Shown: positions 31,002-56,900, counted from the whole stretch's first letter. The stretch is 57,521 nt of DNA, filler included, from Candidatus Hydrogenedentota bacterium (GCA_040752395.1; 3 parts of 3 records of this genome joined end to end with filler, not necessarily neighbours in it); one strand, 5' to 3'. Translations and numbers: made by a program. Notes: generated by a model not told the origin, from the letters alone.

Positions 31002-31101
31002 NNNNNNNNNNNNNNNNNNNNNNNNNNNNNNNNNNNNNNNNNNNNTTAATTAATTAANNNNNNNNNNNNNNNNNNNNNNNNNNNNNNNNNNNNNNNNNNN
31101 N
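31002..31101. other. assembly gap with artificial all-frame-stop linker
   Basis: N44-TTAATTAATTAA-N44. Confidence 0.98.
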
Positions 31102-31427: not shown

Positions 31428-31940
31428 TTAAAATTCTGCACGAATTGCACAGATCTCACGATATAAGAACCTAATCGCTTCTTTTACTGCGCTATATCTG
31501 ATATACTCTCTATCTCCCTGGAATCGGAATCTTAGAGTTTTTACATTATCTGGTCCTGATACAGCTATCCATACTGTTCCGACAGGTTTAGTTTTAGTTC
31601 CACCCTTGGGTCCTGCGATACCTGTTATAGCAATACCCCAATCAGTATCAAGTATCTTTCTTACGTTACAAACCATCTGTTTTACAATTTCACAGGATAC
31701 CGCACCATAGGTTTTTAAATCTCTTTCTCTAACCTTAAGTATTTTTACCTTGATATCATCTGCATAAGAAATTATAGAGCCTTTAAAAACTTTAGAGGCA
31801 CCTGGTATATCAGTAATGAGTTTACTTACATAACCACCTGTGCAGGATTCTGCTATACTTAAAGTCTGTTTTCTTCTTTTTAATAAAGATAATATCTTTC
31901 TACAAAATATTTCTATCTCTTTTTTCTTTGATCTTCTCAT
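31428..31940 (-). CDS. cinA: CinA C-terminal domain / nicotinamide mononucleotide deamidase (PncC)
   Basis: AESCTGG, PGAS, GAVS, ITGIAGP.GG...KPVGTV. Confidence 0.92.
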   Translation of the reverse strand: MRRSKKKEIEIFCRKILSLLKRRKQTLSIAESCTGGYVSKLITDIPGASKVFKGSIISYADDIKVKILKVRERDLKTYGAVSCEIVKQMVCNVRKILDTDWGIAITGIAGPKGGTKTKPVGTVWIAVSGPDNVKTLRFRFQGDREYIRYSAVKEAIRFLYREICAIRAEF

Positions 31941-35723: not shown

Positions 35724-36185
35724 ATGTGTGGGTGTAGATTAAATAGGCTACAAAAAAAGATTCTTCAATTACTTAATGATGAATTGGAATTAACACCCAG
35801 GCCATTTGATAGATATGCGTCTATTTTAAAGATAAAACCCGCAATATTTATAAAAAATATTAGAGAATTAGTAAAAAAGGGATATATTAGAAGAATTGGT
35901 TTTGTTATTCAACATCAAAAGTCAGGTTATAAATATAATGCTATGCTTGTTTTTAGAATATCGCAAAAAAATATTGATAAAACAGGTAAAATACTATCAA
36001 AATATCATTTCGTAACACACTGTTACCAAAGAAGGACTACAAAAGATTGGCCGTATAACCTCTATGCGATGTTACATAGCAGGACAAAAAAAGGGTTTAG
36101 AGAAATGGTTGATATGATATTAAAAAAAATTAGCTATGAAGAATACAAACTTCTTGTCACAAAAAAGGATCTAAAAATTTTATGA
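35724..36185 (+). CDS. ahbB: siroheme decarboxylase subunit (AhbB/NirH-like, Lrp/AsnC fold)
   Basis: RPF, GYIRRIG, NAMLVF, VTHCYQR, WPYNLYAMLH. Confidence 0.75.
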   Translation: MCGCRLNRLQKKILQLLNDELELTPRPFDRYASILKIKPAIFIKNIRELVKKGYIRRIGFVIQHQKSGYKYNAMLVFRISQKNIDKTGKILSKYHFVTHCYQRRTTKDWPYNLYAMLHSRTKKGFREMVDMILKKISYEEYKLLVTKKDLKIL

Positions 36186-37815: not shown

Positions 37816-38094
37816 ATGGATAGAAAAGATGAGTTAAAGGAATTGGCTTATAAGATTGCACGACTCCTTCGAGAAAAATACAAAGTTACTAAGGTTTTCC
37901 TTATTGGCTCACTGGTAACAGGACTTGTGCACGAAAGGTCAGATATAGATATTGTCGTAGAAGGGTTGGCACCTGAACTTTATATAAAGGCATTAACAGA
38001 GGCGTATGATATTCTCCCGGGCGAAGTTGAGCTAAATTTAGTCCCATTTGAAGATGCCTTCCCTTCATTGAAAGAAAAGACATTACGTGACTAA
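37816..38094 (+). CDS. minimal nucleotidyltransferase (MNT) antitoxin, possibly clipped at the C-terminus, no HEPN partner
   Basis: LIGSL...SDIDIVV motif; ends KTLRD; next gene is convergent. Confidence 0.85.
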   Translation: MDRKDELKELAYKIARLLREKYKVTKVFLIGSLVTGLVHERSDIDIVVEGLAPELYIKALTEAYDILPGEVELNLVPFEDAFPSLKEKTLRD

Positions 38095-38152: not shown

Positions 38153-39565
38153 TCAGTATCCTTCAGCTAATACCTGCATAAAAACGTCTACTACTTTAGG
38201 GTCGAACTGGGTACCAGAATTCTTTTGTATCTCGTATACAGCTTCTTCACGTGTCATAATAGTTGTTCTATAAGGTCTTGTAGAAATTATTGCTTGAAAC
38301 GCATCACAGACCGAAAGTATCCTTGAGAGTAGCGGTATTTTCTCGCCTGCTACTTTGTTAGGATAACCGCTGCCATCAAAATGCTCATGGTGATGTTCTA
38401 CAACATCAAGAATTTTTTTACGTAACTCAGCTTTCTGAATTATCTCGATTGATAATAACGGATGTGTTTGAATGCTCTTTATTTCGATATCAGTCAATGG
38501 TGATTCTTTATGCAAAATACTATCCGGGATACCGAGTTCACCTATATCATGGAGATATGCGGCCAGTGTAAGAATATATTTATCTTCAACTGAGAGCCCG
38601 AGTCTATCAGCGATCTTTAATGCAAGTTTTTCAACACCTTCAGCATGACCACGCGTGTACGGGTGCCAGATCTCCCAGATGTCTGCCAGAGCTTTTACTG
38701 ATTTTTTATAGTGTTCCCGTAATATCTCATATTCCTGAAATAGTCTGTAACAGACCCCGATCTCTTTACCAAATGAGATAAGAAAATTTTTAATTGGAAG
38801 AGGTATCGAAGTTTCATCAACTATCAATAATGTTACAAATCCTATAAAACTTTTTTCAAAAACAACAGGTATCCAGATTGAAATATTATAATCCTTAAAA
38901 ACAGGTAAGAAATTGTGCTCTATTTTTTTTCTATAATTTATTATAATATCTTCTTTATTTGATAGCGCTTCTATGAAATCAGGTGGCGGGATAAAAGGTA
39001 ATGGTTTGTCTTTGTATGCCACCCACCATACAGGGTCTAATTTTTCTTTATCATACAGATAAATAATCAATTCATCAACCTTAAGAACAGATTCTAATTT
39101 GTGTTTAATAGTTTCGTAGAAAAGATTAATATTACAAAAGATAGCCGGGTTTTTTGATATCTCCTGGGAAAATGATAAAGTTGTTGCTTCTTTAATCTCA
39201 AAAAGAGCATCAACAAAAGTTTTGCGTTTTGTTACTATTTCTTCATCAAGACTGCGCAAATCCTTTAATCGCGAGAGAGCCTGTTTATAAGATTGCGTAA
39301 TATTATCTGTTTCAGTTGAACCTGTATTAGCAACAGCTTCAAACTCGCCTTTCTCAATATTTTTTATGTTTTCTTCAAGTGCCCTGACAGGTTTGACAAA
39401 ATGTTTTACAATATAAATAGCTATAAAACCTGATAAAGCAACACCCACAAATATTAATCCAAGTCTCACGTAGGAATTCTCTGAAAAAGTAAGGGATAAT
39501 AAAGAGAAAGAAACAGTAAAGATTGTAAATAGAAAGACTATGATAAAGATTATTTTTATCTTCAT
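38153..39565 (-). CDS. membrane HAMP/GAF-like/HD-GYP cyclic dinucleotide phosphodiesterase
   Basis: Two TMs, HAMP (KPVRAL..IEKGEF), YTRGH, HDIG, HHEHFDGSGYP, SGTQFDP; ATG 39565 with GGAGG RBS. Confidence 0.9.
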   Translation of the reverse strand: MKIKIIFIIVFLFTIFTVSFSLLSLTFSENSYVRLGLIFVGVALSGFIAIYIVKHFVKPVRALEENIKNIEKGEFEAVANTGSTETDNITQSYKQALSRLKDLRSLDEEIVTKRKTFVDALFEIKEATTLSFSQEISKNPAIFCNINLFYETIKHKLESVLKVDELIIYLYDKEKLDPVWWVAYKDKPLPFIPPPDFIEALSNKEDIIINYRKKIEHNFLPVFKDYNISIWIPVVFEKSFIGFVTLLIVDETSIPLPIKNFLISFGKEIGVCYRLFQEYEILREHYKKSVKALADIWEIWHPYTRGHAEGVEKLALKIADRLGLSVEDKYILTLAAYLHDIGELGIPDSILHKESPLTDIEIKSIQTHPLLSIEIIQKAELRKKILDVVEHHHEHFDGSGYPNKVAGEKIPLLSRILSVCDAFQAIISTRPYRTTIMTREEAVYEIQKNSGTQFDPKVVDVFMQVLAEGY

Positions 39566-39612
39566 ACAATGTAAACCTCCTTCCTCGAAAAACATTGTTA
39601 ACTTTAATAATT

Positions 39613-39707
39613 CGGGCTACAGGCTACGGACTACAGCCGGCTGGAGCCCGAAGCCTGAAGCCAACATATCATCTTTAGTTTTTCATCCTTTGTGCCTTTG
39701 TGCCTCT
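39613..39707 (-). repeat. composite palindromic heptamer element
   Basis: (CAGGCTA/CGGACTA) arm, CAGCCGGCTG centre, (AGCCCGA/AGCCTGA) arm; 22-nt core ATGAAAAACTAAAGATGATATG at 39665-39686 (minus); CTTTGTGC x2. Confidence 0.9.
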
Positions 39708-39822
39708 TTTCCTCCCCTTTAAAGTGTCTCACGTTTCAGGGGAGCAGTATATTTGGTATTCCAAAACTCTAATGCCATACGAAAGATGCTCATAAGTTTG
39801 TTCTTAAGTAATGAGTGTTTTT

Positions 39823-41322
39823 TCATCCATATGCTTTTAATATCTCTACTCTATCCCGACCATTAATCTTTGCTTTATACAAAGCTGCATCAGTATTATC
39901 AATCAGTCCAAGAAAACCCATTCCAGCATAATATTCTGCTATTCCCGCGCTTAGTGTCACATTAAACTCATTTGTCTTATAATTAAATTTTTCTCTTTTA
40001 ATTCTATCTCTTATAGATTCTGCTATATTTAAACTCTCTGAAATATCCTCATCCGTAATCACAGCTATCTCCTCACCGCCATATCTGCAAGGAATAGATC
40101 CTCTATCTCTGCAAACATCCTTTATCACGCAACCAACTCTTTTTAACACCTCATCACCTATGGTATGCCCCATTGTATCATTTATTTTTTTGAAATAATC
40201 TATGTCTATTAAAATCAGTGAAAGTTTATTAATATTTTCTTTATTATCAATTTTTTCTGTTTTCTCTCTAATAATTCTGTCAAAATAGCCTCTGTTATAT
40301 AATTCTGTCAGCTGATCTTTAATAGCCTGATTATAAAGTATAGCTTTAGATATCCTTGACTTAAAATATTCTTCAATCATCTCGATCCAACCCTCTGGTA
40401 TATCCCCTCGTTCCTCGCCCTTATTAATGCAAATTATGTTATATTCATTATCTACCTCCCAGTTATAAGCAGGGAAACGTTCTTTCATATAATCTATAAA
40501 ATATTGAATAATTGTAGCCGGCTCTTCTTCAAGTTCGCCTAATTTAATAAACAAATCTGATGATATAAGTAAACTTCTCATAGCATCTTTGTTTATACTC
40601 ATTCTTTTTAATACAGCAGGGCAACCAAACTGAATATTACATACTTCACACCATTCTGATTCATTTGTTTCGAACCTGTTCATACTAAAGCATTCATCGA
40701 GATTCTCAATTATTCTGTTTATAGTATCTGTATCGTATAAATCATCCTTTCTGATTGATATGATACTTCTGGTGTATAAATTGTAGCGGGTAAAACTTTG
40801 TATCTCTATACCGAGTAACAGATTAATAAGATATCTTATGAAACTCACCTCAAGTTTTAATAATTTTTCTACTTCTTTTGTTTTTCTTATTCTATGTTCA
40901 ATAACATCAAAAGTATCTGTTCGGTCCAATCTTTGAAGATAATAATACATTACATAATTATTTTTATTAATGCTCAGGTATCGGTTCTGTAAATACGCTT
41001 CTTTTTCTGTATCAATAGAATAATATAACCATTCAAGCATCTCCAGGGCTTTATTCCCAAATTCCTTCTCCATTTTAATATTATCGAAAACAGATTTATT
41101 CCAATTATTACGAAGCAATGATTTTAATCTATTAAGACTTCTATCTTCATTATCAACAGAGAAAAAATCACCGATGGTTTTAATTATGGATTTATATTGC
41201 GCCAGATAATATCCTGTTTCTTTATCTTTATCTTTAAAAAGCTTGTCCTTGCATACTATATTGAACCTGTATGGGCAGAGATAAAATATCGCCATATCGT
41301 GTGGATTAACATTTAATAACAT
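39823..41322 (-). CDS. GGDEF diguanylate cyclase with N-terminal degenerate Fe-S PD-(D/E)XK nuclease-like domain
   Basis: DQLTELYNR, IDIDYFK.IND..GH..GD, RYGGEE; N-terminal CPYRF and CEVCNIQFGCP four-Cys staple. Confidence 0.85.
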   Translation of the reverse strand: MLLNVNPHDMAIFYLCPYRFNIVCKDKLFKDKDKETGYYLAQYKSIIKTIGDFFSVDNEDRSLNRLKSLLRNNWNKSVFDNIKMEKEFGNKALEMLEWLYYSIDTEKEAYLQNRYLSINKNNYVMYYYLQRLDRTDTFDVIEHRIRKTKEVEKLLKLEVSFIRYLINLLLGIEIQSFTRYNLYTRSIISIRKDDLYDTDTINRIIENLDECFSMNRFETNESEWCEVCNIQFGCPAVLKRMSINKDAMRSLLISSDLFIKLGELEEEPATIIQYFIDYMKERFPAYNWEVDNEYNIICINKGEERGDIPEGWIEMIEEYFKSRISKAILYNQAIKDQLTELYNRGYFDRIIREKTEKIDNKENINKLSLILIDIDYFKKINDTMGHTIGDEVLKRVGCVIKDVCRDRGSIPCRYGGEEIAVITDEDISESLNIAESIRDRIKREKFNYKTNEFNVTLSAGIAEYYAGMGFLGLIDNTDAALYKAKINGRDRVEILKAYG

Positions 41323-41323
41323 A

Positions 41324-42508
41324 TTAAAAATTTACTTTCTTTTTATCCTGCGGTTTCATAAGCCTGTGATAAAAATATCTATAGACATCATCTTTTAGAC
41401 TAACAATCAGTCTTATCATTGGTTGATAACCCACGACTTTCAAAAGCGGGTTTATTTTATCCTCGTCAGACACATCATATATAATAGGTTTGTCAATACC
41501 CTGAGCTATAATATAGTAATTATCGCAATTTATTTCATTTAAGATACAATCAGAAATAAATATTCTATGCATCCCAAATTTATCTATCAATTTTCTCAAA
41601 CTGAAATCAGTTTTAACGAACAAACTCAATCCATTATCAAGACACTGTATATTCATCTCAAAATTATCTTTTATTATCAATTTCATATCAGATTCAATGT
41701 AATACAGATTGACGTCCATTTTCAAAATCGTCTCAATATATTCATTATCTAAAAGCGAGATAATATCTTTGTAACATAATATAATTTTTTTATTATCAAG
41801 CGATATCTTTTCAAGATAAGAAAGATAATATCTATAAAACTCTGGTACTGGATTAGTTATTAATATGCTATCCTGTACACCATTTAACATCCTTTTAATT
41901 AATATCTTATAATTATCTTCATCTATTATCTCCAGATTTTTATATTCTTTTATATCCCCAAAAATGCCATCAATTTTTTCTTTAATATTTTTTAATTCAG
42001 CAATGGTTTCGCTGTGACTTAATATTTTTTCTGTTTTTATTCTTTCTTTCTGTATCCTGTTCCATTCTTCTTCTATCAGTTCCCGTTGTTTTGATAGTTC
42101 ATACTTAAGTTTTTCTCTTGCATCTTTTTCAATGTTTAAGCGAAATTCATCGAATTTAACTCGCCATCTGTTTTCGGTCTCCTGCAGCTTATTTCTGTTT
42201 TCTTCCTGAAGATTTTTATTTTTAATCTCTAATCCCATATTTATCCCTTTCAATTTATTAACTTCTTCATATAACTCCATATTACTTTTTCGTAATCTTT
42301 TAAGGATATGTGAAAATATAATTATACCCGATAATAAGAAAACAAGTATAATAGCGAGAACAGGGATACCATACTTAACAGTAAATGTTTTAGGGTCAAG
42401 CAGCTCAAGATACAATAAAACCTCTATAACTATTACTGGGAAAGAAAGCAATATCCCAAGAATTATTATATTAAATATTCTATCAAAACTACTTAATTCC
42501 CTTTGCAT
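41324..42508 (-). CDS. 2-TM coiled-coil protein with degenerate PLD-like domain
   Basis: Two N-terminal TMs, long E/K/Q coiled coil, then DSILITNP..DMKLIIKD (HxKxxxxD with H to D); 1-nt gap to the GGDEF gene. Confidence 0.6.
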   Translation of the reverse strand: MQRELSSFDRIFNIIILGILLSFPVIVIEVLLYLELLDPKTFTVKYGIPVLAIILVFLLSGIIIFSHILKRLRKSNMELYEEVNKLKGINMGLEIKNKNLQEENRNKLQETENRWRVKFDEFRLNIEKDAREKLKYELSKQRELIEEEWNRIQKERIKTEKILSHSETIAELKNIKEKIDGIFGDIKEYKNLEIIDEDNYKILIKRMLNGVQDSILITNPVPEFYRYYLSYLEKISLDNKKIILCYKDIISLLDNEYIETILKMDVNLYYIESDMKLIIKDNFEMNIQCLDNGLSLFVKTDFSLRKLIDKFGMHRIFISDCILNEINCDNYYIIAQGIDKPIIYDVSDEDKINPLLKVVGYQPMIRLIVSLKDDVYRYFYHRLMKPQDKKKVNF

Positions 42509-42562
42509 AAAATACGCATTATCCGTTTTTATAAAGTAAAGTCAAGTTTCATGTCTTATAAA

Positions 42563-43999
42563 TCAACCTTCTTTTTCATCACTGCGCCGAAAAGATAGTA
42601 AATCTGAAAGAAAATAACAAAACAAACCAGAGATTAAAAATACGACCCAGATTATTATCCATCGCTCATTTTTAAAATTTGAAACATCAATAATCCTTGT
42701 AAACGGGAATTCATTCAAAAATGCTATATCCAGATAAAATATCCGAACAAGACCTGAGAGTATTATCCCGCTTATGAGATTTAAATATGGTATAAAAACT
42801 AAGAGTTCAAAGATTGTGCTTAAACATAATATAATACTAAAGAATGGTACTATAATTATATTTGATATAAAAGAGCCTAAATATGTGATACTGCCAAAGT
42901 GGTATGCTATGATCGGAGTTGAGGCAAGCTGTGCAGGAATAGTAACAGAAATTATTCCTGCTAACCAGTCGGATAAAACTTTCTTCAAAATATCATTAAA
43001 TAATCTAACATATAACAAAATAAATAACGTCACTGCAAATGTTAATTGAAACCCGACAGAAAATAATTCCAGTGGTGAGAATAAAAGGATTACAAGCCCT
43101 GAGAACGATAGAGCTTGAAATTCGTCTCTTCTTTTATAAAAAATCATTCCTATCAAATAAAATATTATCATCAATCCAGCTCTTTCTGCGCTTGTGCAAA
43201 ATCCTGATTGAAATAAAAACAGAATAACACCTATTATAGAAATCACTGCTCTTTTTCTTAAATCATATACAAATCCAGATATCCCAACAAAAAGAGCACA
43301 AATTATTATCGTAACATTCAATCCTGATAGGGCAAGAAGATGCGTCAGCCCGGTCTCTTTAAAAACAATCGTGTCATCATACACGAATTCCCTCATCCCG
43401 AAAAGTATAGCTGATACGAACCCACCTTCTTTTTCTCCAATACAGGTAATTATCTTCCCAGATAAAAATAATCTTAATCTATCATATAATAAAGGCTGTC
43501 CTATCTCTTCTGTCTTATACGTTCTTGCTTTTAAAAAACTATTGAATATCCTTTCTTTAGAAAAGACACAGTACAAATTATATTTTCTATAGGGTTTTAT
43601 ACTGTGCGTTACATCTTCAATTAAAATTTTGTGAGTAAATTTTTGAGTCTTAATAAATTTATTTTTGTTATCCAGTGGTTCTGCATAACCCTGAATCAAT
43701 AAATAACCTTTATCAAATAGATAATTTTTTTCATCAATCAGTCTTTGGTTATAAATATTATATAAACTATTCCCGGTAAAAAAGAGAATAATAAATAATA
43801 TAAACGAAATAATTCTCAATAAATATACTTTTTTATTTTTACTTATCAATTTTAAAAATATAAATATTAAGGTAAGAACGATAAAAGAGATGAAATAACC
43901 CCAGTATCTATTCAATAATATTCCACTGATCATTCCGATAAAAGCGAATAATAAAGGTCTGCACAAAAATTCATCAAAATGTTTAACAATTCTACTCAC
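42563..43999 (-). CDS. comEC: ComEC/Rec2 competence protein (no C-terminal beta-lactamase-like domain)
   Basis: AILFG, GLTHLLALSGLNV, SAERA.LM, SVGFQL.F, P.IAYHFG, SNIIIVP. Confidence 0.9.
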   Translation of the reverse strand: MSRIVKHFDEFLCRPLLFAFIGMISGILLNRYWGYFISFIVLTLIFIFLKLISKNKKVYLLRIISFILFIILFFTGNSLYNIYNQRLIDEKNYLFDKGYLLIQGYAEPLDNKNKFIKTQKFTHKILIEDVTHSIKPYRKYNLYCVFSKERIFNSFLKARTYKTEEIGQPLLYDRLRLFLSGKIITCIGEKEGGFVSAILFGMREFVYDDTIVFKETGLTHLLALSGLNVTIIICALFVGISGFVYDLRKRAVISIIGVILFLFQSGFCTSAERAGLMIIFYLIGMIFYKRRDEFQALSFSGLVILLFSPLELFSVGFQLTFAVTLFILLYVRLFNDILKKVLSDWLAGIISVTIPAQLASTPIIAYHFGSITYLGSFISNIIIVPFFSIILCLSTIFELLVFIPYLNLISGIILSGLVRIFYLDIAFLNEFPFTRIIDVSNFKNERWIIIWVVFLISGLFCYFLSDLLSFRRSDEKEG

Positions 44000-44012
44000 A
44001 TTTTAAAGTTAT

Positions 44013-44252
44013 TTATTCTCTTCTTTCTTTTTTTTCTTTAAGTAATTTTCTTAAGCGTCTATTAATCCCTCTTATTTCTTTTTTTATTTCTCTAACTTTC
44101 TTCTTATCAGTTTTTTTAATCTCGGTGAGAAGTGTTTTAAGGGTTCTGATTTTTCTCTTAAGTTTATCCTTATTAGTTATTTCTTTTATTTGCTTTTCTT
44201 GTTTTTGCTCAATAGTTTGCTCTTTATTTTCAATTTTAAGTTCATCGTTCAT
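44013..44252 (-). CDS. small Lys/Arg-rich hypothetical protein
   Basis: GAGGAG RBS before ATG 44252 (MNDELK); basic helical sequence; 13 nt upstream of comEC. Confidence 0.65.
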   Translation of the reverse strand: MNDELKIENKEQTIEQKQEKQIKEITNKDKLKRKIRTLKTLLTEIKKTDKKKVREIKKEIRGINRRLRKLLKEKKERRE

Positions 44253-44290
44253 AATAACTCCTCTGAAAAACATTGTAATTATAATAATAT

Positions 44291-44434
44291 CAAGTAGAAG
44301 CAAGAAGCAAGATAACAGAAGAAGTGAGAGGTATCAGGACAGGCTACAGGCTACGGACTACAGCCGGCTGGAGCCAAAAGCCAAAAGCCTGCTGAAAAGT
44401 CTTGAGTCTTGAGTCTCGAGTCCTGTTTTGACTC
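44291..44434 (-). repeat. composite repeat element at contig end (near copy of 47416-47545)
   Basis: Reverse complement reads GAGTCAAAACAGGACTCGAGACTCAAGACT..TTTCAGCAGGCT..GCTGTAGTCCGTAGCCTGT..GTCCTGATACCTCTCACTTCT. Confidence 0.92.
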
Positions 44435-44534
44435 NNNNNNNNNNNNNNNNNNNNNNNNNNNNNNNNNNNNNNNNNNNNTTAATTAATTAANNNNNNNNNN
44501 NNNNNNNNNNNNNNNNNNNNNNNNNNNNNNNNNN
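44435..44534. other. assembly gap with artificial linker
   Basis: N44-TTAATTAATTAA-N44. Confidence 0.98.
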
Positions 44535-44758: not shown

Positions 44759-44877
44759 AATTCTTTACTTTTAACTTTTCATAGGAGTACTCATGAGCGC
44801 GTTTGTGCTCTACACAATATATGAAAAACTAAAGATGATATGTTGGCTTCAGGCTCCGGGCTTCGGCCTACAGCCGG
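44759..44877 (+). repeat. composite repeat element
   Basis: TTCTTTACTTTTAACTTTT (reverse complement of the 31238 region); AGGAGTACTCA; 41-nt block with 3 mismatches to 47343-47383; GGCT heptamers. Confidence 0.9.
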
Positions 44878-47296: not shown

Positions 47297-47563
47297 AGGA
47301 GTACTCAACTATTGGGTTATTGGGTTTTTGGGTTTTTGGGTTTTTGCGCTCTACACAAAGTATGAAAAACTAAAGATGATATGAAAAGAGTCGTGAGTCG
47401 TGAGTCGCAAGTCGTGAGTCAAAACAGGACTCAGGACTCGAGACTCAAGACTCGAGACTCAAGACTTTTCAGCAGGCTCTGGGCTTCGGGCTCCAGCCAG
47501 CTGTAGTCCGTAGCCTGTACCCTGTCCTGATACCTCTCACTTCTCACTTTTTACTTCTTACTT
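47297..47563 (+). repeat. longest composite repeat element
   Basis: AGGAGTACTCA; TT(A/T)TTGGG-type octamers; 41-nt core; (GAGTCGT)n-AAAACA-(GACTCRA)n hairpin; GGCT/AGCC module; CTTCTCA/CTTCTTA heptamers. Confidence 0.92.
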
Positions 47564-47609
47564 CGTGAAATTATTGGAATTACAATGTTTTTCAGAGGAG
47601 GTTTTACAA

Positions 47610-47947: not shown

Positions 47948-50900
47948 TTGTTTAACAAGTTTCGGTTACACTTTAGTCGCCGAAGTGGAAAACTGAATAA
48001 CGTAAAAACCAGAACCATCCCGGTTTTTTTATTTATTTTCTTTATGGTAATGGGGTCGGTAGGGATGATGTTTGCTGCTAATAATGCAACTTTGCCAGGT
48101 TCATGGAATGGTTGGAATAATGCTACAGGTCAGACACCATGGTCGTTTGTTGGTCAGGGTAGTGATAACTGGTTTACTCTTTATCATGTTCCTTCCTGGG
48201 GTTTGGTTGAAGATAATTCATATGAGTGGAAAATATATCATTATGACTGGGGATGGAAAGGTGAAGGCTGGGCTGTTGGTATTATAACCCAGGCGAGTGG
48301 GGTTTCCGAGTATCTTGATATGAATGGAAATACGGCTAATAATACAATAACGTTTGGAGACCCGGGTTGGTACTGGTTTTATTACAATGGTGATGGTGAG
48401 GATATATGGATTTGTCCTGGTAGAGTAAGAACTGATGGTTCCAACTGGAGTAATGCAACAGATGAACGTATAAAAGAATGGCCAACTGCATCTCTTATGG
48501 GGGATGATGTGAACACAAATGATACTTTTTATCTTAATTTTGATACTTATTTTATTTATCTCGGTCTTGGTGACCAGAATCTTGATAATTCTGACTGGTT
48601 TGTAGCGCTGGATGTTACTGGTGGCGGTTCTAATGTTTCAGATGCCTGGAATGGCACGTATACTTTTCCTGATGGTTTTTATGCAGATTATATGCTTGAA
48701 GTTGAGAATGCTAATCCTGCTGCTGTGGCAACTTATTCTGCTAGTTCATGGGATGACCCTGCGGATGGTACCAAAATTACTCGGGACTACTATACTATAG
48801 GCTCTAATGGGTTCAGTGAGGTTGTGATAAAATGGTCTGATATAGGAGGCAAACCTGATACGTTTTCTGTTATAGCCTGGGTCCAGTGGGAAGCTGAACA
48901 AAAGTTGAACTCAAGTTTTCCTACATCAAATTTATCAAACGGTGTTATTCCTGCAAGATTTGTATCATATTATTTTTTCTCTGGTCAGATAGACGACTCA
49001 GGTGTTGCATATTGCGACACATCAATAAGACAAACCGGGGATTTGATTATAGCAGAATTCAACCCTGATGACGATATGACCGCATATCCCCAAGCAGAAT
49101 GGTTTGAGATATATAACCCTACCAACAGGTCAATAGATTTAAAAAACTGGTGTATTATGGATGGTGATGGTGCTGAAGCATATATAGCAACAGTACCTAC
49201 AACTTTACCACCTGGTGGTCATGCTCTTGTTTATGCAGACGCAACTGCTGAATACCCGGGATATCAGCAGGAATCAGATACTACCGGTGATTTGAATAGG
49301 AACGGGTTTATAGATGTTTATGTTTTGGCTGATTTAATGACCACTACAGATGAAGATGTTTTTCTTTTAAATTATAATACAGTTCAAAGTGAAGATTCAA
49401 CTGTAGATTTTGTGGTATATACAAATAACGATGCTACTAATAGCATGGATGATATGGACGACGCGTTTGATTATGGACAATGGTGCACAGGGTTAAACGC
49501 GGAAGCAAATGCTGTTGGTGATATAGACAACATCGATGGTGCTGCAAACGGGTCGTTTTATCGTAAGTTTGATTCCTATGGTTATCTGGATGAAAACAGT
49601 AAATACGACTGGGTACAGAACACCTCAAGCGGGAACAGGACCGTAGGATATCATAACTCGTCACCTACTTCTATCACCAATGTTAAAATATACGACTCAA
49701 CTTTTAGTTCTGAAATAAGTACTACTAACGCTAATGAAAATGTGGGTATAGAGGTAAATGCTACAGACAGGTTTTCTTCATCAAGAGATTTCACTTCTGT
49801 TAACGTTTATGTTTATGACGGTAATGGTAGTGACACGGGTGATACCCTGGGAATACTCCAGATACAATTAAGAGAGACCGCAAACAACTCAGGTATTTTC
49901 CGTGGATATGTTTATCTTTCAAACTCGGCGAGCAATTATGAAGCAGGTGTTCTTTATGTAACAGCAAGTGATTCAGTAAAAATATTCGCGATTGCAGATA
50001 CAACAAAATGGGACGATGTAAAAATAACAGGCGCAGATGTTACTAAACCATCAATTACAGTGAACGACAGTTATTATGTGATGAAATCATCTGATTGCCC
50101 AATAGATGTAGATTTTGCTGATGACATTGATTTATCAAAATATGCCTATTATATAAGCGGTGTTTCTGGCTCGTTTGGCGAGAAGAGTATATCAGGTAGT
50201 TCTTATACTGGTTTTGTAAGTATACCCGAGGCCTTTAATGCTATGACAAATAACGAGGTTTATAATGTGACCATAGGGTGTACTGATGCTTCTGGTAACG
50301 ACACCTGGTGGTCTAATGCTGTGACTGTAAAAAAGGAGTTATGGTCAGCTGATGGGTCATGTACTGATTTTACAGCTCAGGGTGACGAGTTTATGGACTC
50401 GGATTATGGTGCGAGTCTATCACGTGGGTTCTATTTCACCTGGGATGATACGTATTTCTACGTGCTCTGGGAAGGAAACAATTTGAATAATGATGATGTA
50501 TTCATAGCGTTTGATACAGGTCCTGGCAGGAGTCAAGGTGCTACTAATGAATTTTATGAAGGTCAATGGTATTCCAATAGTAACTATAGACCAGATGTTG
50601 CTATTGTATTTTTTGATACCAATACTATTAACCGTTATTATAATTCTGGCTCAGCACTTACTTTAGATGCCAATTATGCGAGTTCATGGTTACACGACGA
50701 TGGAACCGCATCTGATTTGACTTCTGAACTTCGGGTTCCACGATATTATATTCAGGGGTATAATTATTCGAGGTCAGATTCTATTGGTATTTTTGCATGG
50801 ATTGGAGAAAACAATAATGCAAGCGGGCCTGGGGACGACGTTTATGCAACATGGCCACGTACAAACGAGGACCCAGGAATCGGGCCTTTTTATTTCCATA

Positions 50901-53900
50901 ACTGCATATTGTTTGAGAACACTTATGATACACAGGCACCAGACTCGTATCTACATACAAGGTTCAAAGTCTCGGCTGATACATCGGCACCTTATCAGAA
51001 CACACCGTTCAATTTAAGGATCACAGCGCTTGACAAGCGTGGTGATACAGATGCAGGTTACAACCAGGCACGAGGCGAAGTATTGATAGAAGTTTCAAGT
51101 GGCGGTATTTTTCCGACAACTACAACCGATACCTTTACAAACGGTTTTTTAATCCAGCAGGTGACTGTTGATGCGACTGGCAATGTTACTATCACGGTTC
51201 GTGACGCTAATGTAAATGTTACCCAGGGCGCTATTAATCCACAGATATATGGAACTATTAGTTTAACATTTACAGCAGTCAACAACGCACCGTACGCAAG
51301 CAATCTATATCCCGGGACAGGGGTCTATCAGAACACTCGAAACCCGTTATTATCATGGACATTTAGTGATTCAGACCCATATGATACAGTTGGTTATGGG
51401 TTTCATCTCCAGGTCTCGACTACTAATAATTTTTTAAGCCCATATTATGAAGCATATTATACTGATACAACTGCGAGTTCGCATCAGGTCTCGACCAATC
51501 TTAACTACATGACACCTTACTGGTGGCGGGTTCGATTAATTGATAACCAGCCAGAAACAGGTAGCTGGAGTAATGGTAATGACTCATTTGTGGTTCAGCG
51601 AATAGTTCTTGATGGTAATTCAGACGACTGGGATGCAGGTACACCAGGCAGCTCTAATAACTCTTCAGTAGTAGATGACCAGTTCTGGGTCTGGACAGAT
51701 GTTACCGGGGATGAAAGAACAGCTGGCCCTAATTCTGACGATAATTATGATATAAAGTACATGAAAATAGTTGGTGATACTAAATATTTATATTTTTATT
51801 TTGAATTTACAGATATTACAGAAAACGATTCTGTTGATATAAGCATAGTTGTTGATACCAATACATCAGGTAATATTTCATGGATAGGTGATGATGCAGG
51901 CGAAGATATTAATACTACAACAGCGTTTGATGCTGAGATGGTGTTAGATTTATCAGTTGACGGAGTTTACTATTTTCGGACAGGAGCATCAAACTGGACA
52001 TCGCCTGCGATCCCTGATGATGCAGGTGCTCCTACAAGCAATAATTGGATCTCCATTTCAAATAACATCGCTGAATTTAAACTACCCTGGAGTTTATTAG
52101 GTGTTAATATCTCATCATCACCAGAACTTGGGTTTGCGGTAATGACTTTTGCAAAAACAGTCAACACCGACCCATCAACAAATGATCATACAATATATAT
52201 TAGTGATGGTGATGGACTTGATATAGTTCATCCAGGACCAGCAGAGGTATCAGATAATGTCGAATATGATAATACCTGGAATGTTGATTTATATGACCAG
52301 CGGCTTGAGTTTTATTTCAGTGTTAAATTTATGAGTGATGGCAGCGTGGATTATAATTTAAACCCACCACAAACACCAGATGCTGTTGACCCAGAAGACC
52401 ACGGTAAAACCACAGATACTACACCACTTATCCAGTGGAGCTCTGTTTCTGACCCTGATAATGATACTGTTACTTTCTATCAATTTCAGCTTAGCGACAA
52501 CCCGGGATTCACTGATGGGCTTATCATAACTCATGTTATTGATACAACTGTTAAATCGAGCATAACGAGTTATCAGGTTGATTCCGGTTTAACATCTGGT
52601 AACACTTATTTCTGGCGTGTACGTGCTTATGATGTTCATGGTAGAGCCTCAAGCTGGGGGAGTTATCAGTTCCAGATCGGGAATCTTGGTAGAGCGATAG
52701 ATGGATTCTCATCTGATTGGAACGAGACCAAGCCTGCGGATGTTGACCAGTGGCGCATAGAAAACTATGAGTTTATCTTTATAGATGATTATGATGACTC
52801 ACGTGGTGCAGGCGGCATACCTAAGAACCCGAAAACAGCTGATTTAGTTGAAGTACGGGTATATAGCGATAGCGCAAACGACGGTATGCTCTATTTCTTA
52901 ATGAAGTTTAATAAACTAATTACCACTGACAGTTATAACATAATGATAGCAATAGATACAGACCAGGTGAGTGATCAGCAAGTATCATGGATAGGTGATG
53001 AGTCAAGGGGGGCTAATTCTGTATGGGTTGATTCAAATGCTTACTCAGAAGCGCAATATACTATTGGTAGTGTAGGGGATGATTTCTGGGAATACGAAAA
53101 GCCGCAGAATGTATGGGACCGACCTGATTATAATTCTGTATTTAAGAGCTATATAAATGCAGGAATTCAATCCGGTCAGGAGGTGGACTCGAACAACGTA
53201 GAGCTTGCTATCTGTATGAAAGATTTCGGGATTAGTTTACCTGTGGCTTCTAATTTTAAACTCCGCTTCACAATCGCTACATCATTTTTTGGTACTTCAG
53301 GCGACCCTGATGGAGTAGATAAAACAGATGATCATTCAAGTGGTATAGATTTGATTGATGGTATGATCCCTGGTACTGGTGACTGGACTACTGATGAAGC
53401 ACTTACTACTGACTATGCTATAAACTGGTATTTTACACTCTTATTCGATAAAACCACAGGGAAGATTTTAGGTGGAGATGCTGATAATGATGGTTCAATA
53501 TCAACTGGTGAGAACGTTCCTAAACTCAGGATTTCAGAGGTATATCTATCGCCTACCAATGATACTTTTATTGAGATAGTATGTATAGATGATGGCAACC
53601 CATCTGGTGGTGCGAACATCGGTGGTTATTATATCAGCAATTATGACGGGACTCCGTACACAATTGCGACTAATACAATAATCAATTCTGAAGAATTTTT
53701 TCTATTACATATCGGCCAGGCAGGCACAAACGAGACCACCTCAGGCACAGATGCGATCATAGACCAGTACACAGGTACTGGTTATGACCTTGATATTGAT
53801 TACGAGCAAGTTGCATTAATAAAGCCTGCGAGAGCCAGCTCACCAAAGCATCCCCAGACAATAGTTGATGCAGTGGTCTGGAAAAACGATTCCCAGACAA

Positions 53901-56900
53901 GTTTTCCATCAGGCGAGTCAGATGATATAGATACTATTGTCAGAGCTGGTGAGTGGCGTGATTCTGCGAATCTTTACAACGCTGTAATAATATTCTGGGA
54001 TGATACCAGTGTTATGTATCGGCCAGGCACGTATGAGGATGCGCATGTTGTATCAGATTGGCGTGTAATGCCACCAGCGACCCCTGGTTCAGGACCTGTC
54101 GCAACCATAGAGGTCGATGCTCCAGCATATGCAAACTGGGACGTAGCGTTTCCCATTACTGTAAGGTTCAAAGATGCGTTCGGAAACTATGTTGTATTTA
54201 CAGATACTTTTTACATATCAATCGATGCTTACTCTATCTCGCCAACCGCATCAAGAATAACAACTGCTGACAATGGTGAGACCACGTTTAATGCTACAGT
54301 AACCGGCGGTTCTGGTAACATCCTTCTTACTATAACTGTAACATATCAAGGTGTAAGCGGCAGTGACCAGGTAACGCTATCGGATCAGAACAACCCGCCT
54401 GAGGTAACAATCGATACTACGCCAGCCGATGGTGATACGTATTATGGTGCAATCAAAATTTATTTCACTTTAATAGATGGTTTATCTGATCAATGCACTG
54501 CAACCATACATTATTCTGATGACAATGGTTCAACATGGAAAACTCCTACATTAATCTATCAAACAGATACAACAGACTTACAGAGCAGTCCAAGTGGTGT
54601 TCAGCATTATGTAGTCTGGGATCTGCTTGCGGACTTTGCTTGGGGTACCACACAGAATGATATTAAACTCAGGATAACGCCAACTGATACAGCTGGGAAC
54701 ACTGGATCAGCTGATACCACGCAAGCATTTACAGTTGCTAACCTTTTATTGCGAAATATAAAAATAAACGAGGTTGCGATGGATGAACCAGTTACTGACT
54801 GGTTTGAGTTATACAACAAAGGCTCGGATTCTATCACAGTTGCTGGATTTACATTTGATGATGAGGATGCAGCTAATTTATTCTCGATCCCTGATACCTG
54901 GCCTGAAATAGGACCTGGTCATTATCTGTTAATCTATGTTGATGCAGATGGTGTAGGTGATACCAATACTAGTGATAGTGTGACCATATTTTATTCAGGT
55001 ACAAACACCACCATTGATCTTGCTGTGTCTGAAGATGAATTATACGTATTTTATGGCAGGTATGGTCAGTCATCCAGTGTAAGTACTAAAACCGTGATCG
55101 ATTTTGTGAACTGGTGCAGTGATGGTGCTTATGGTCCGAATACTGATAGTGATGTTGCAGTGAATGCAGGGATCTGGGATGGTGAGACTTATGTAATATT
55201 CGTAGATGACGGCTCTAATTATTCAATCGGTTTGCTGCCTGATGGTGATGATAATGATACGCCGCCGGATTGGGGATATTTTAGTCCGGTTGACACAACA
55301 CCAGGTGCAAGAAACCAAGCACCAATTACTGCTGATATCAGGATAAACGAGTTTCATCCCGGTGATGATGGTGTACCGAATGATAATTTCGAGGATGTAG
55401 GTACTGCAGGTGCACCGCTTGATGGCGAGTGGATCGAGCTTTATAATCCAGGCTCAACTGACGTTGATTTAAATGGCTGGCGATTTAAGTCAGGTGACGC
55501 TTATCTTAATATTACCACGAGTAACGTTGCTAACTCTGATACTACAACACCAGCAGGTAGCGCTGTTATATCAGCTGACGGTTTCCTTGTAGTGTTTCGT
55601 GATGGTGATGCTGATTTCAGTCTACTTTGTGAAGGCCCGGATAGCATAATCCTTCAGAATGGTGCAGGTGATAGTATCTATTCTATTTACTATGGTGCAG
55701 GTGAAGGAAACGGTGATGATTGGACAAAGAGTCTTGCTTGTTTACCTGATGGCTCTTGTACATGGTATGCTACAACATTAATTACACGGGGTTATACTAA
55801 CGAGAAATTATTGTATATAGAAGATGTGGCCGATCCAACTCCAGGAACCAATACTACAACTATTACAATAAAGATAGTTGATATCCTTGGGAACGTCGAT
55901 GTAAACAATAATTCTGATAGTTTCACGCTTCATGCAGATAACAGCGGTACGTTTCCTGCCTCGGTTCTATCAGGTTATTATATAAGTGGTGGTAATGCGA
56001 ACTGGATTCGTGTAAGGGTTACGGCAGGCACTGTTCAGATTATTCTTTATGATTATGCGCTCCCGGAAACCGTAACCCTATCGCTTTCTGACCCGGCTCC
56101 ATTAATGACATATTCTGATACAGAGGCTGTATATTTCGCATCGGTTGATGGTTCTGGTACTGCAACGATTACGCCATCGAGTATCTGCGTTGGTGATACC
56201 TCAACATTTACAATCACGTATTATGCGAACGGTAATTTAAATGGTGGTACTGTAACGGTCTATTTCCCGAATGATTTCTCCAACCCAAATATCACAAACC
56301 CTTCAGAGACAGGGTTTATTACAATTACTTCATCAGGTAGTATTTCAGATAGTGAGATAATAAATACTGATACACTTGTTATTTCAATCTCTACACTTGG
56401 TGTTGGTGGCTGGATACAGATAGTATATGGTGATAACACAAGAGGTGCGCAGGCTGATACTGAGTCAGGGATATATACTTTTACTATTTGTTCTCAGGGT
56501 AGTGGTGGTACGCTTTCAGGCATCGGTTCCAGCCCATGGGTCTCTGTAACAGAGCGGGTTGTAATAAACGAATATTTACCTGACCCGGTCCCTGGGTTTG
56601 ACCATGATGGTGGTGGTGAAGCAGAGCCTGGGGACGAGTTCATAGAAATCCATAATACGAGTGATGATACGATTAATTTAGGTGGCTGGCGGATCACAGA
56701 TGATGAGGCTTATACTGCCGGTTGTATCTTGGGGGGTGAGTTGCCACCAAGGGGTTTCTTTGTTCTTTATGGTGATAATGATACACGAGCATTTTATTCA
56801 GATGGCAGCATATATAAGAGTGGTGTAGGTAGCGGCGCACCAAGTTTAGCTAATACCGGTGATGTAATATTTCTTTTTGATAATAATAATGAGACAGTTG

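Follow-up and report, generated by a model that had tools for sequence, protein, structure and literature searches.

The 57,521-nt stretch of DNA analyzed here (the window), from a Candidatus Hydrogenedentota bacterium (GCA_040752395.1), contains at positions 38153–44252 a locus of five genes, which encode a small basic protein, a short ComEC, an orphan protein (P3), a protein joining a nuclease-like domain to a GGDEF domain (P4), and an HD-GYP protein. The initial annotation, made from the sequence alone, had proposed that this locus is a DNA-uptake-linked signaling module based on cyclic di-GMP (c-di-GMP). The data supported the part of this proposal that concerns signaling, because a predicted maker and a predicted breaker of c-di-GMP are both encoded here and the input domain of the maker is an inactivated nuclease, while the coupling to ComEC is speculative. 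The solid part of the finding, as judged from sequence comparisons, is that P4 is a cyclase with a dead, cysteine-keeping domain of the Cas4/AddB type, and that a small family of proteins carries the live-nuclease version of this arrangement. We estimate at about 50% the probability that the locus encodes a genuine c-di-GMP make-and-break pair whose input domain is of a novel type, in which P4 acts as the sensor and P3 as its partner.

The nuclease-like and cyclase domains of P4

P4 (39823–41322, minus strand; 499 aa) is composed of an N-terminal domain (residues 1–240; 40603–41322), a linker (residues 241–333; 40324–40602) and a C-terminal GGDEF domain (residues 334–491; 39850–40323). A word-seeded search with residues 1–330 returned only P4 itself, and an exhaustive phmmer (HMMER) search with the same residues gave 41 matches with E ≤ 1e-3, eight of them with E ≤ 1e-10, the best non-self match having an E value of 2.8e-16. 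The Pfam PDDEXK_1 domain (PF12705) was present in all 25 phmmer matches that were scanned, with E values from 1e-27 to 1e-39, and was often accompanied by Cas_Cas4. In a language-model atlas the N-terminal part of P4 matched PDDEXK_1 clusters only, with a score of 0.95. The AlphaFold2 (AF2) model, obtained with a 40-row alignment, had a predicted local distance difference test score (pLDDT) of 84.8, which exceeded 90 over residues 40–220. When this model was compared with BFVD using Foldseek, the 50 rows listed contained 24 PD-(D/E)XK, RecB or Cas4 proteins and 5 GGDEF proteins, the rest being uninformative, and the best nuclease-type row had an E value of 2.2e-10 and a template modeling (TM) score of 0.65. 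Searches of the PDB, either by Foldseek with the two-domain model or by profile, returned GGDEF structures only. P4 is out of reach of the Pfam PDDEXK_1 model, also when all six frames of the genome are searched, and the stand-alone PDDEXK_1 gene of the same genome (on contig C65) is not close to P4 (3.4 bits). Considering both the sequence homology and the predicted fold, residues 1–240 of P4 are a divergent PD-(D/E)XK nuclease domain of the Cas4/AddB type (PDDEXK_1-like).

The comparison of 72 aligned nuclease domains, P4 included, defined what has become of the active site. P4 has I47 in a column that is His in 71 of the 72 domains, Q130 in a column that is Asp in 70, and E142, H143 and R144 where Asp (68/72), Tyr (71/72) and Lys (71/72), respectively, are found. 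The last two replacements are E158, in a column that is Gln in 68 domains, and I162, in a column that is Tyr or Phe in 68. In PD-(D/E)XK nucleases it is residues of the His, Asp, (D/E)xK and QxxxY columns that bind the metal and carry out catalysis, and hardly any sequence among the 72 other than P4, if any, is altered at every catalytic position. On the other side, the cysteines corresponding to C225, C228 and C234 are present in all 72 domains, and that corresponding to C16 in all 65 that have this column; all four are kept in P4. In AddB and Cas4 the four cysteines hold a [4Fe-4S] cluster. Hence, the pseudo-nuclease proposed in the initial annotation can be described more sharply as a dead nuclease that keeps the ligands of the cluster. 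P4 is similar to the Cas4/AddB/RecB-family nucleases (PDDEXK_1, PF12705; Cas_Cas4, PF01930) in the predicted fold and in the C...CxxCx5C pattern, while it differs from them in the replacement of all the catalytic His, Asp, Lys and Gln-Tyr columns, in not being reached by the Pfam model, and in the fusion of the domain to a cyclase, outside repair or CRISPR systems.

The C-terminal part of P4 matched the GGDEF domain in Pfam (1.3e-35) and TIGR00254 (7e-42; 142.9 bits versus a cut-off of 37.4), and its metal and substrate columns (DxDxFKxxND, GH, GD and RxGGEE) do not vary in the family alignment, which includes P4. The signature reads GGEEI, with Ile instead of Phe as the fifth residue. Many diguanylate cyclases, although not all, have an inhibitory RxxD site (I-site) five residues before the signature; this site is absent from P4, which has RDRGS with one extra residue, while the relatives have RAVD or REID. 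The linker had no Pfam GAF match and a pLDDT of 41–70. It is 93 aa long versus about 180 aa in the relatives, in which this region contains a GAF domain, and only its flanks could be aligned, so that it is possibly a GAF remnant. Overall, P4 looks from its sequence like a functional, soluble diguanylate cyclase.

Proteins with the same arrangement were found in other bacteria. Six of the phmmer matches were PDDEXK_1-(GAF)-GGDEF proteins of 567–617 aa, and this architecture accounted for 34 of the 120 database clusters listed in a profile search; the organism-named rows among these listed clusters, five in number, all came from metagenome-assembled genomes (MAGs) of Elusimicrobiota/Endomicrobiia, where the proteins were labeled "diguanylate cyclase". 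When 26 genomes of one phylum were searched, 5 had a fused nuclease-GGDEF gene, and three full-length fused-gene loci were found in the genome-contig search. A metagenome scan with the family alignment was uninformative about the fusion, as all 80 loci kept matched residues 243–589 only, that is, the generic GGDEF pattern. P4 shares with the Elusimicrobiota/Endomicrobiia proteins (for example P0014 and P0036) the N-terminal four-cysteine nuclease domain and the C-terminal GGDEF domain, at 23–26% overall identity. In contrast to P4, these proteins keep the nuclease catalytic residues and the RxxD site, and several of those scanned have a Pfam GAF domain; P4 has lost all three. When the linker and GGDEF part of P4 was used as the query, the fused relatives were not ranked above unfused GAF-GGDEF proteins. 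In a quick tree of 64 nuclease domains, from which 8 near-identical rows had been dropped, the branch of P4 was the longest (3.2 changes per site) and its placement was not resolved. An origin of P4 from the fused family and an independent fusion both stand, since neither the tree nor the GGDEF part separates them.

The surroundings of the fused genes were compared with those of P4. In the five fused-gene loci yceG was upstream of the fused gene in each case, and pmbA/tldD was downstream in four, the contig of the fifth ending before this point; none of the five had a comEC, HD-GYP or P3-like gene beside the fused gene. These loci form one syntenic lineage, and they were counted as one observation, not five. 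Thus, the Elusimicrobiota/Endomicrobiia genes lie between yceG and pmbA, while the P4 gene lies beside those for P3, ComEC and the HD-GYP protein. The conserved order, polysaccharide deacetylase, yceG, cyclase and pmbA/tldD, was seen at L087:6240–13589 and in L088, L089 and L219, and a CHASE2 adenylate/guanylate cyclase and a Crp-type regulator were encoded further on in two fused-gene loci.

The HD-GYP protein and the orphan protein P3

The gene next downstream of P4 (38153–39565, minus strand) encodes an HD-GYP protein of 470 aa, counted from the ATG that follows GGAGG; the start in the list of open reading frames (ORFs) is at 39595. The protein matched HD_5 with an E value of 1e-38 over positions 3–170 of the 170-position profile (38192–38689), and both the HD motif (LHDIGE) and the HHEHFDGSGYP motif are visible in its translation. 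Together with the cyclase domain of P4, this match bears out the earlier assignment of GGDEF and HD-GYP domains to the locus. The N-terminus consists of two hydrophobic helices, with a HAMP match below threshold (0.08), and is followed by a middle region of about 180 aa that has no family. Hence, the protein is similar to known HD-GYP phosphodiesterases in its full-length HD_5 domain and its motifs, while it differs from the NosR-family response-regulator phosphodiesterases, which gave its best NCBIfam match (NF053512; 2.8e-41, score of 142 versus a cut-off of 400), in having the hydrophobic helices and the middle region instead of a receiver domain.

The genome has 9 GGDEF and 6 HD_5 matches in total, and two GGDEF/HD_5 pairs lie within 3 kb of each other, one in the locus and one on contig C305, versus 0.11 expected (P = 0.006). 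Because of this excess, the pairing of the diguanylate cyclase with the HD-GYP protein is probably functional. In the pair on C305 (813–3757) the two genes are co-oriented and separated by about 2 kb, and a repeated gene-start cassette, which is described below, lies between them. In the mechanism that we consider, P4 would make c-di-GMP, and the membrane-anchored HD-GYP phosphodiesterase would reset the signal. The nuclease domain of P4 would no longer cut, and it could serve as a binding sensor that governs the pairing of two GGDEF domains. The likeliest input to such a sensor would be a free nucleic-acid end, and the alternative would be the redox or oxygen state of the cluster.

P3 (41324–42508, minus strand; 394 aa) is encoded immediately upstream of P4, with a gap of 1 nt. 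By inspection, the protein begins with two hydrophobic helices (about residues 11–68), which are separated by a ten-residue loop and followed by KRLRK; a charged, coiled-coil-like helical stretch comes next (about residues 70–185), and the C-terminal domain, which is some 210 aa long (41327–41953), has a fold without assignment. The part of P3 past KRLRK is probably cytoplasmic, as predicted from this pattern. A word-seeded search of 5.8 billion clusters, and searches of its own genome and of 60 other genomes, returned P3 only. There was no match in Pfam or NCBIfam, nothing under an E value of 1.3 among PDB sequences, and no match to P3 in a PADLOC scan of the five cluster proteins, in which the matches of the other proteins were below threshold or weak. 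The AF2 model of P3, made without an alignment, was unusable (pLDDT of 40.5). A match to Rz-like spanins in PHROGs (4e-4, residues 44–150) was read as a reflection of coiled-coil composition, not of homology, and was rejected.

The designation of P3 as a pseudo-phospholipase D (PLD) was not confirmed. Besides the negative Pfam, NCBIfam and PDB comparisons, P3 scored 0.9 bits with a PLDc_2 profile, for which 28 domains from the sample genomes had been used, and its relation to PLDc_2 had a probability of 0.7% in hhalign, which aligned 23 columns. The HxKxxxxD (His-Lys-Asp) motif of the PLD/Nuc superfamily is absent from P3, and a D-x-K-x4-D string is located too near the sole aligned segment for the spacing of this family. 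The ESM Atlas linked P3 to a PLDc_2 cluster at a feature score of 0.77 and to TrmB-type regulators at TM scores of 0.31–0.37, both under the bars of the tool. PLDc_2 domains are encoded elsewhere in the genome, on contig C212 (9558–12382), where two adjoining frames of 507 and 596 aa each contain two PLDc_2 domains and an HHH_3 repeat; these may be DNA-binding nucleases of the PLD type. In the proposed mechanism P3 would be translated from the same message as P4, and its two-helix membrane anchor, coiled coil and cytoplasmic domain could tether P4 to the membrane or dimerize it there.

The features of P3 and P4 could also be explained by accident and decay, that is, by a chance neighborhood in which P4 has lost its active site, its GAF domain and its I-site, P3 is a fast-evolving orphan, and the HD-GYP gene is the sole normally working signaling gene. 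The longest branch in the tree, the degeneration of every catalytic column in P4 alone, and the missing GAF match, where several relatives have one, would all be expected from decay, while the four cysteines and the catalytic columns of the GGDEF domain, which have been kept, would not, and the pLDDT above 90 suggests that the fold of the nuclease-like domain has been preserved. The absence of P3 homologs in the clusters and genomes searched and the low G+C content of both genes also fit decay; on the other hand, both genes keep long, uninterrupted frames, of 394 and 499 codons, in DNA of 27–31% G+C, in which stops arise easily, and the 1-nt spacing of P3 and P4 is typical of coupled genes. 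We regard accident and decay as an unlikely explanation of the locus, and prefer the reading of P4 as sensor and P3 as its partner.

Gene layout, ComEC and DNA uptake

The window consists of three contigs (C306, C309 and C310), joined by N44-TTAATTAATTAA-N44 spacers at 31002–31101 and 44435–44534, and features are not to be read across these joints. The locus lies on the middle contig, C309 (31102–44434; 13,333 nt), of a 2.84-Mb MAG that has 349 contigs and is 93.8% complete. It forms the right end of C309, where 182 nt separate it from the contig end. No close relatives of the source genome were found among the 60 genomes compared, all of which share with it the rank of domain only, and every synteny argument is therefore limited; two weak matches in these genomes were dropped as noise (E of 0.0075 with 7 stops, and E of 0.0014 in a coiled coil). 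Inspection of the ORFs confirmed five co-oriented genes on one contig, all on the minus strand, with gaps of 13, 54, 1 and 257 nt, the last of which had been given as approximate. The starts of the basic gene (44252) and of the HD-GYP gene (39565) were also agreed upon, as each follows a GGAG(G) ribosome-binding site. The anatomy is thus mostly as described in the initial annotation, and the gaps and most of the domain calls are real.

Both the stretch upstream of the locus and its last gap contain copies of a mosaic intergenic repeat, which is found throughout the genome. One copy, at 44255–44434 (minus strand), stands directly before the basic gene, reaches the contig end and includes a gene-start cassette (core 44258–44276) with a ribosome-binding site. 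The other lies in the 257-nt spacer (39566–39822, minus strand), where the initial annotation had placed a repeat element, and consists of the mosaic repeat with a G+C-rich hairpin (39615–39714) and a cassette core (39580–39598) that sets GGAGG 10 nt ahead of the HD-GYP ATG. The hairpin has a z value of −2.8 and no T-run after it. It is the last module of the repeat, ACAATGTTTTTCAGAGGAG and its variants, that supplies the ribosome-binding site ahead of the start codon. The cassette has 362 matches in the 2.84-Mb genome with up to 3 mismatches, while C309 contains just the two copies, before the basic gene and before the HD-GYP gene, when up to 4 mismatches are allowed. Further copies of the repeat, beside those at 39566–39720 and 44255–44434, were noted in the window at 44802–44868 and 47343–47606, and many contigs of the genome start or finish in it. 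The cassettes would split the five genes into a basic-comEC-P3-P4 group and a separate HD-GYP gene, which is suggestive only. The G+C content agrees with such a division, because low values are common to the four upstream genes (25% in the basic gene, 29% in comEC, 27.5% in P3 and 31% in P4), while the HD-GYP gene has 34% and the genome 34.8%.

A separate promoter between comEC and P3 had also been suggested. The sequence TTGACT-N16-GATAAT is indeed present in the 54-nt gap (42545–42518, minus strand; 10/12 matches), but it does not exceed what AT-rich DNA yields: 50 promoter-like sites were found in 6.8 kb, versus 34.8 ± 5.7 in shuffled sequences, and the site therefore carries little weight. 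Its −10 element stops 9 nt ahead of the P3 ATG, which has no visible Shine–Dalgarno sequence, and a transcript from this site, if it is used, would be nearly leaderless. In the stretch from comEC to P4 the coding strand has no gene-start cassette and no terminator-like site separating the genes, and the sole minus-strand terminator-like site detected in the terminator scan lies within comEC. The basic gene and comEC could be co-transcribed with P3 and P4, and the locus might conceivably be connected with DNA uptake in its function.

The basic gene (44013–44252, minus strand) encodes a Lys/Glu-rich protein of 79 aa from the ATG at 44252, and the ribosome-binding site before this ATG comes from the cassette. 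The protein has no family in Pfam or NCBIfam, and its PADLOC matches were below threshold only. The comEC gene (42563–43999, minus strand; 478 aa) starts with GTG, 13 nt past the stop of the basic gene, and has no visible Shine–Dalgarno sequence. Its product contains the Competence domain (PF03772; 1e-41, 143.5 bits versus a cut-off of 23) at residues 200–458 (42626–43402) and scored above the cut-off of TIGR00360 (76.2 versus 36.5 bits) and below that of the full-length equivalog TIGR00361 (79 versus 190 bits). As the initial annotation had noted, this ComEC lacks the β-lactamase-like nuclease domain: Pfam detected the Competence domain and no Lactamase_B, and the protein stops 20 residues past the Competence domain. 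DUF4131 (PF13567), the N-terminal OB-fold, had no match at E ≤ 0.1, and the position where it would be expected is taken by roughly 100 aa of soluble sequence (about residues 96–195). The absence of the lactamase domain is ordinary. Among open frames carrying the 65 non-own Competence matches in the sampled genomes, 17 are of 513 aa or less. Moreover, a published survey of 4,935 proteins with a Competence domain reports Lactamase_B in no more than 52.3% of them, and its absence from 20 of 51 ComECs of known competent strains (PMC6299819). In having a Competence domain without Lactamase_B, the ComEC of the locus resembles the ComEC/Rec2 proteins with the "Competence only" or "DUF4131+Competence" profile described there, while it differs in copy number, because the survey found a single copy in all but one strain (PMC6299819), and this ComEC is the second copy in its genome.

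The other ComEC of the genome (C298:882–6025 region) is 1,025 aa long and has DUF4131 and Competence domains, while its last 414 aa gave no Pfam match. Two comEA-like genes, each with three HHH_3 (ComEA-type) repeats, directly follow the gene for this longer ComEC, and DprA is also present in the genome. Because the comEA-like genes adjoin the longer comEC, the C298 locus is probably the main, classical DNA-uptake locus, and the ComEC on C309 is an extra copy. More than one copy was also seen in three MAGs with a nuclease-GGDEF gene (G061:C41, G062:C19 and G063:C158), each of which has two ComEC-family genes about 8–11 kb apart on one contig, and several ComEC copies may be usual in such lineages.

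To compare the neighborhoods of comEC genes in general, 6 kb on each side were inspected for 40 of the 65 non-own Competence matches, each from a different genome. The sample comprised 20 short or medium frames and 20 of the best-scoring long frames, GGDEF and HD-GYP profiles were built for the purpose, and the contig with the locus was recovered as a positive control. A GGDEF gene was found within 6 kb of 4 of the 40 comEC genes, in one case together with HD-GYP, versus 1.47 expected from the GGDEF count and size of each genome (P(≥4) = 0.06). Three of the 40 had GGDEF on the same strand within about 2.2 kb; under the rule "same strand within 3 kb" 0.36 would be expected (P = 0.006), but this rule was set after the data had been seen, and the value is a lead, not a test. 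In the first of the three (L170; 4052–6879) a GAF-GGDEF gene lies 86 nt upstream of a short comEC, and in the second (L187; 3661–7299) the order is comEC, REC, GGDEF. The third (L192; 4554–12787) has the order comEA, comEC, methylmalonyl-CoA mutase, GAF-GGDEF, dCache-HAMP-HD-GYP. None of these three cyclases has a nuclease domain, and their sensor domains differ (GAF, REC). Same-strand GGDEF genes thus recur at 3 of the 40 comEC loci, while none of the five related cyclase loci has comEC. The open-access literature that was searched contained no description of a comEC-linked cyclase module.

In the model of the initial annotation all five genes form one unit, DNA entering through the short ComEC is sensed by P3, by the dead-nuclease domain of P4, or by both, and the resulting pulse of c-di-GMP is ended by the HD-GYP protein. 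The co-orientation of the genes, the short gaps (13, 54 and 1 nt) and shared low G+C content of the first four, and the uninterrupted coding strand from comEC to P4 agree with this model, although the promoter-like site before P3 speaks against a single unit. The derivation of the input domain from a DNA-end-processing family also agrees with it, while prediction places most of P3 and the whole of P4 in the cytoplasm. The recurrence of GGDEF genes near comEC in the census, at the 6-kb distance and under the post hoc rule, and the gene order in L192 point in the same direction; on the other hand, the three same-strand neighborhoods use unrelated sensors, comEC, HD-GYP and P3-like genes are all missing from beside the five related nuclease-GGDEF genes, and the comEA-like genes adjoin the longer ComEC. 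These comparisons make the model improbable. The coupling of the locus to ComEC and DNA uptake rests on adjacency in one genome without relatives and on a weak, post hoc recurrence of comEC with GGDEF, and is speculative.

The flow of information could also be the reverse, with the cyclase and phosphodiesterase setting the c-di-GMP level in response to an unrelated cue, and c-di-GMP controlling the ComEC paralog, or DNA uptake and pili, in a manner similar to the control by cyclic dinucleotides (c-di-NMP) and ComFB-type receptors. ComEC itself is not known to be a target of c-di-GMP, which counts against this scheme. Cyclic dinucleotides are reported to control natural competence and pili through receptors of the ComFB family, so that the signal runs in the direction opposite to that of the initial annotation. 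Those systems are similar to the locus in joining cyclic dinucleotide signaling with DNA-uptake genes; they differ in that the messenger acts on competence through a receptor, while no c-di-GMP receptor was identified in the cluster, where PilZ and other receptor families were not searched for, and no ComFB homolog was found in the 93.8% complete genome. The presence of DprA and of comEA-like genes suggests that the organism probably can take up DNA, and the same-strand adjacency of comEC and GGDEF in 3 of 40 diverse genomes would suit either direction of flow. We consider this reverse scheme hardly probable as well, and retain the reading in which P4 is the sensor and P3 its partner.

The remaining part of C309 contains a CinA-type gene (31428–31940), a siroheme-decarboxylase-like AsnC-type gene (35724–36185), a class-III aminotransferase gene (PF00202; 36379–37689), which is hemL-like by inspection, and a small MNT-type nucleotidyltransferase gene (37816–38094), next to which a HEPN partner was not evident. 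The possibility that the cluster is a defense island was rejected, as PADLOC support was absent and no mobile-element genes were found on the 13.3-kb C309. On the third contig a very long open frame of more than 3,191 aa (47948–57520) runs off the end of the window.

Assessment and significance

Several points weigh against the interpretation of the locus as a c-di-GMP pair with P4 as sensor and P3 as partner. The long branch of P4 and the loss of its GAF domain and I-site could mean that the N-terminal part is a decaying relic or a mere scaffold, and the binding of DNA and of an Fe-S cluster by this part is predicted only. The cyclase activity is assumed, and the GGEEI signature has Ile in place of the usual Phe. 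As no relative of P3 was detected and its model is unusable, the role assigned to it rests on gene spacing and on what its sequence shows by inspection. The promoter-like site before P3 and the cassette before the HD-GYP gene could divide the locus into three transcripts. Finally, the nuclease-intact relatives are encoded in the housekeeping-like context of yceG and pmbA, which offers no indication that DNA is involved in their role.

Known inputs of diguanylate cyclases include light, oxygen, metals, small ligands and phosphorylation. In the open-access literature that was searched, no input domain of the PD-(D/E)XK or Cas4 type was described on a diguanylate cyclase. A more far-reaching proposal is that the fusions of Cas4/AddB-type nucleases to GGDEF domains are an undescribed class of nucleic-acid-sensing cyclases, of which the locus contains a binding-only version, tethered by P3 beside a spare ComEC, that would report incoming or broken DNA as c-di-GMP; we regard this proposal as doubtful, well short of probable. 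The finding does not yet reveal new biology of DNA uptake. A comparison is nevertheless built into the family, because its Elusimicrobiota members keep the cutting residues which P4 has lost. If DNA sensing by nuclease-GGDEF proteins is true, it would be a bacterial second-messenger response to DNA that comes from a GGDEF cyclase, not from a cGAS-type enzyme. If P4 senses DNA ends, there would be a direct connection from DNA damage, foreign DNA or DNA uptake to c-di-GMP signaling, and if it senses through the cluster, the domain would be a new redox-sensing module for the c-di-GMP signaling family.

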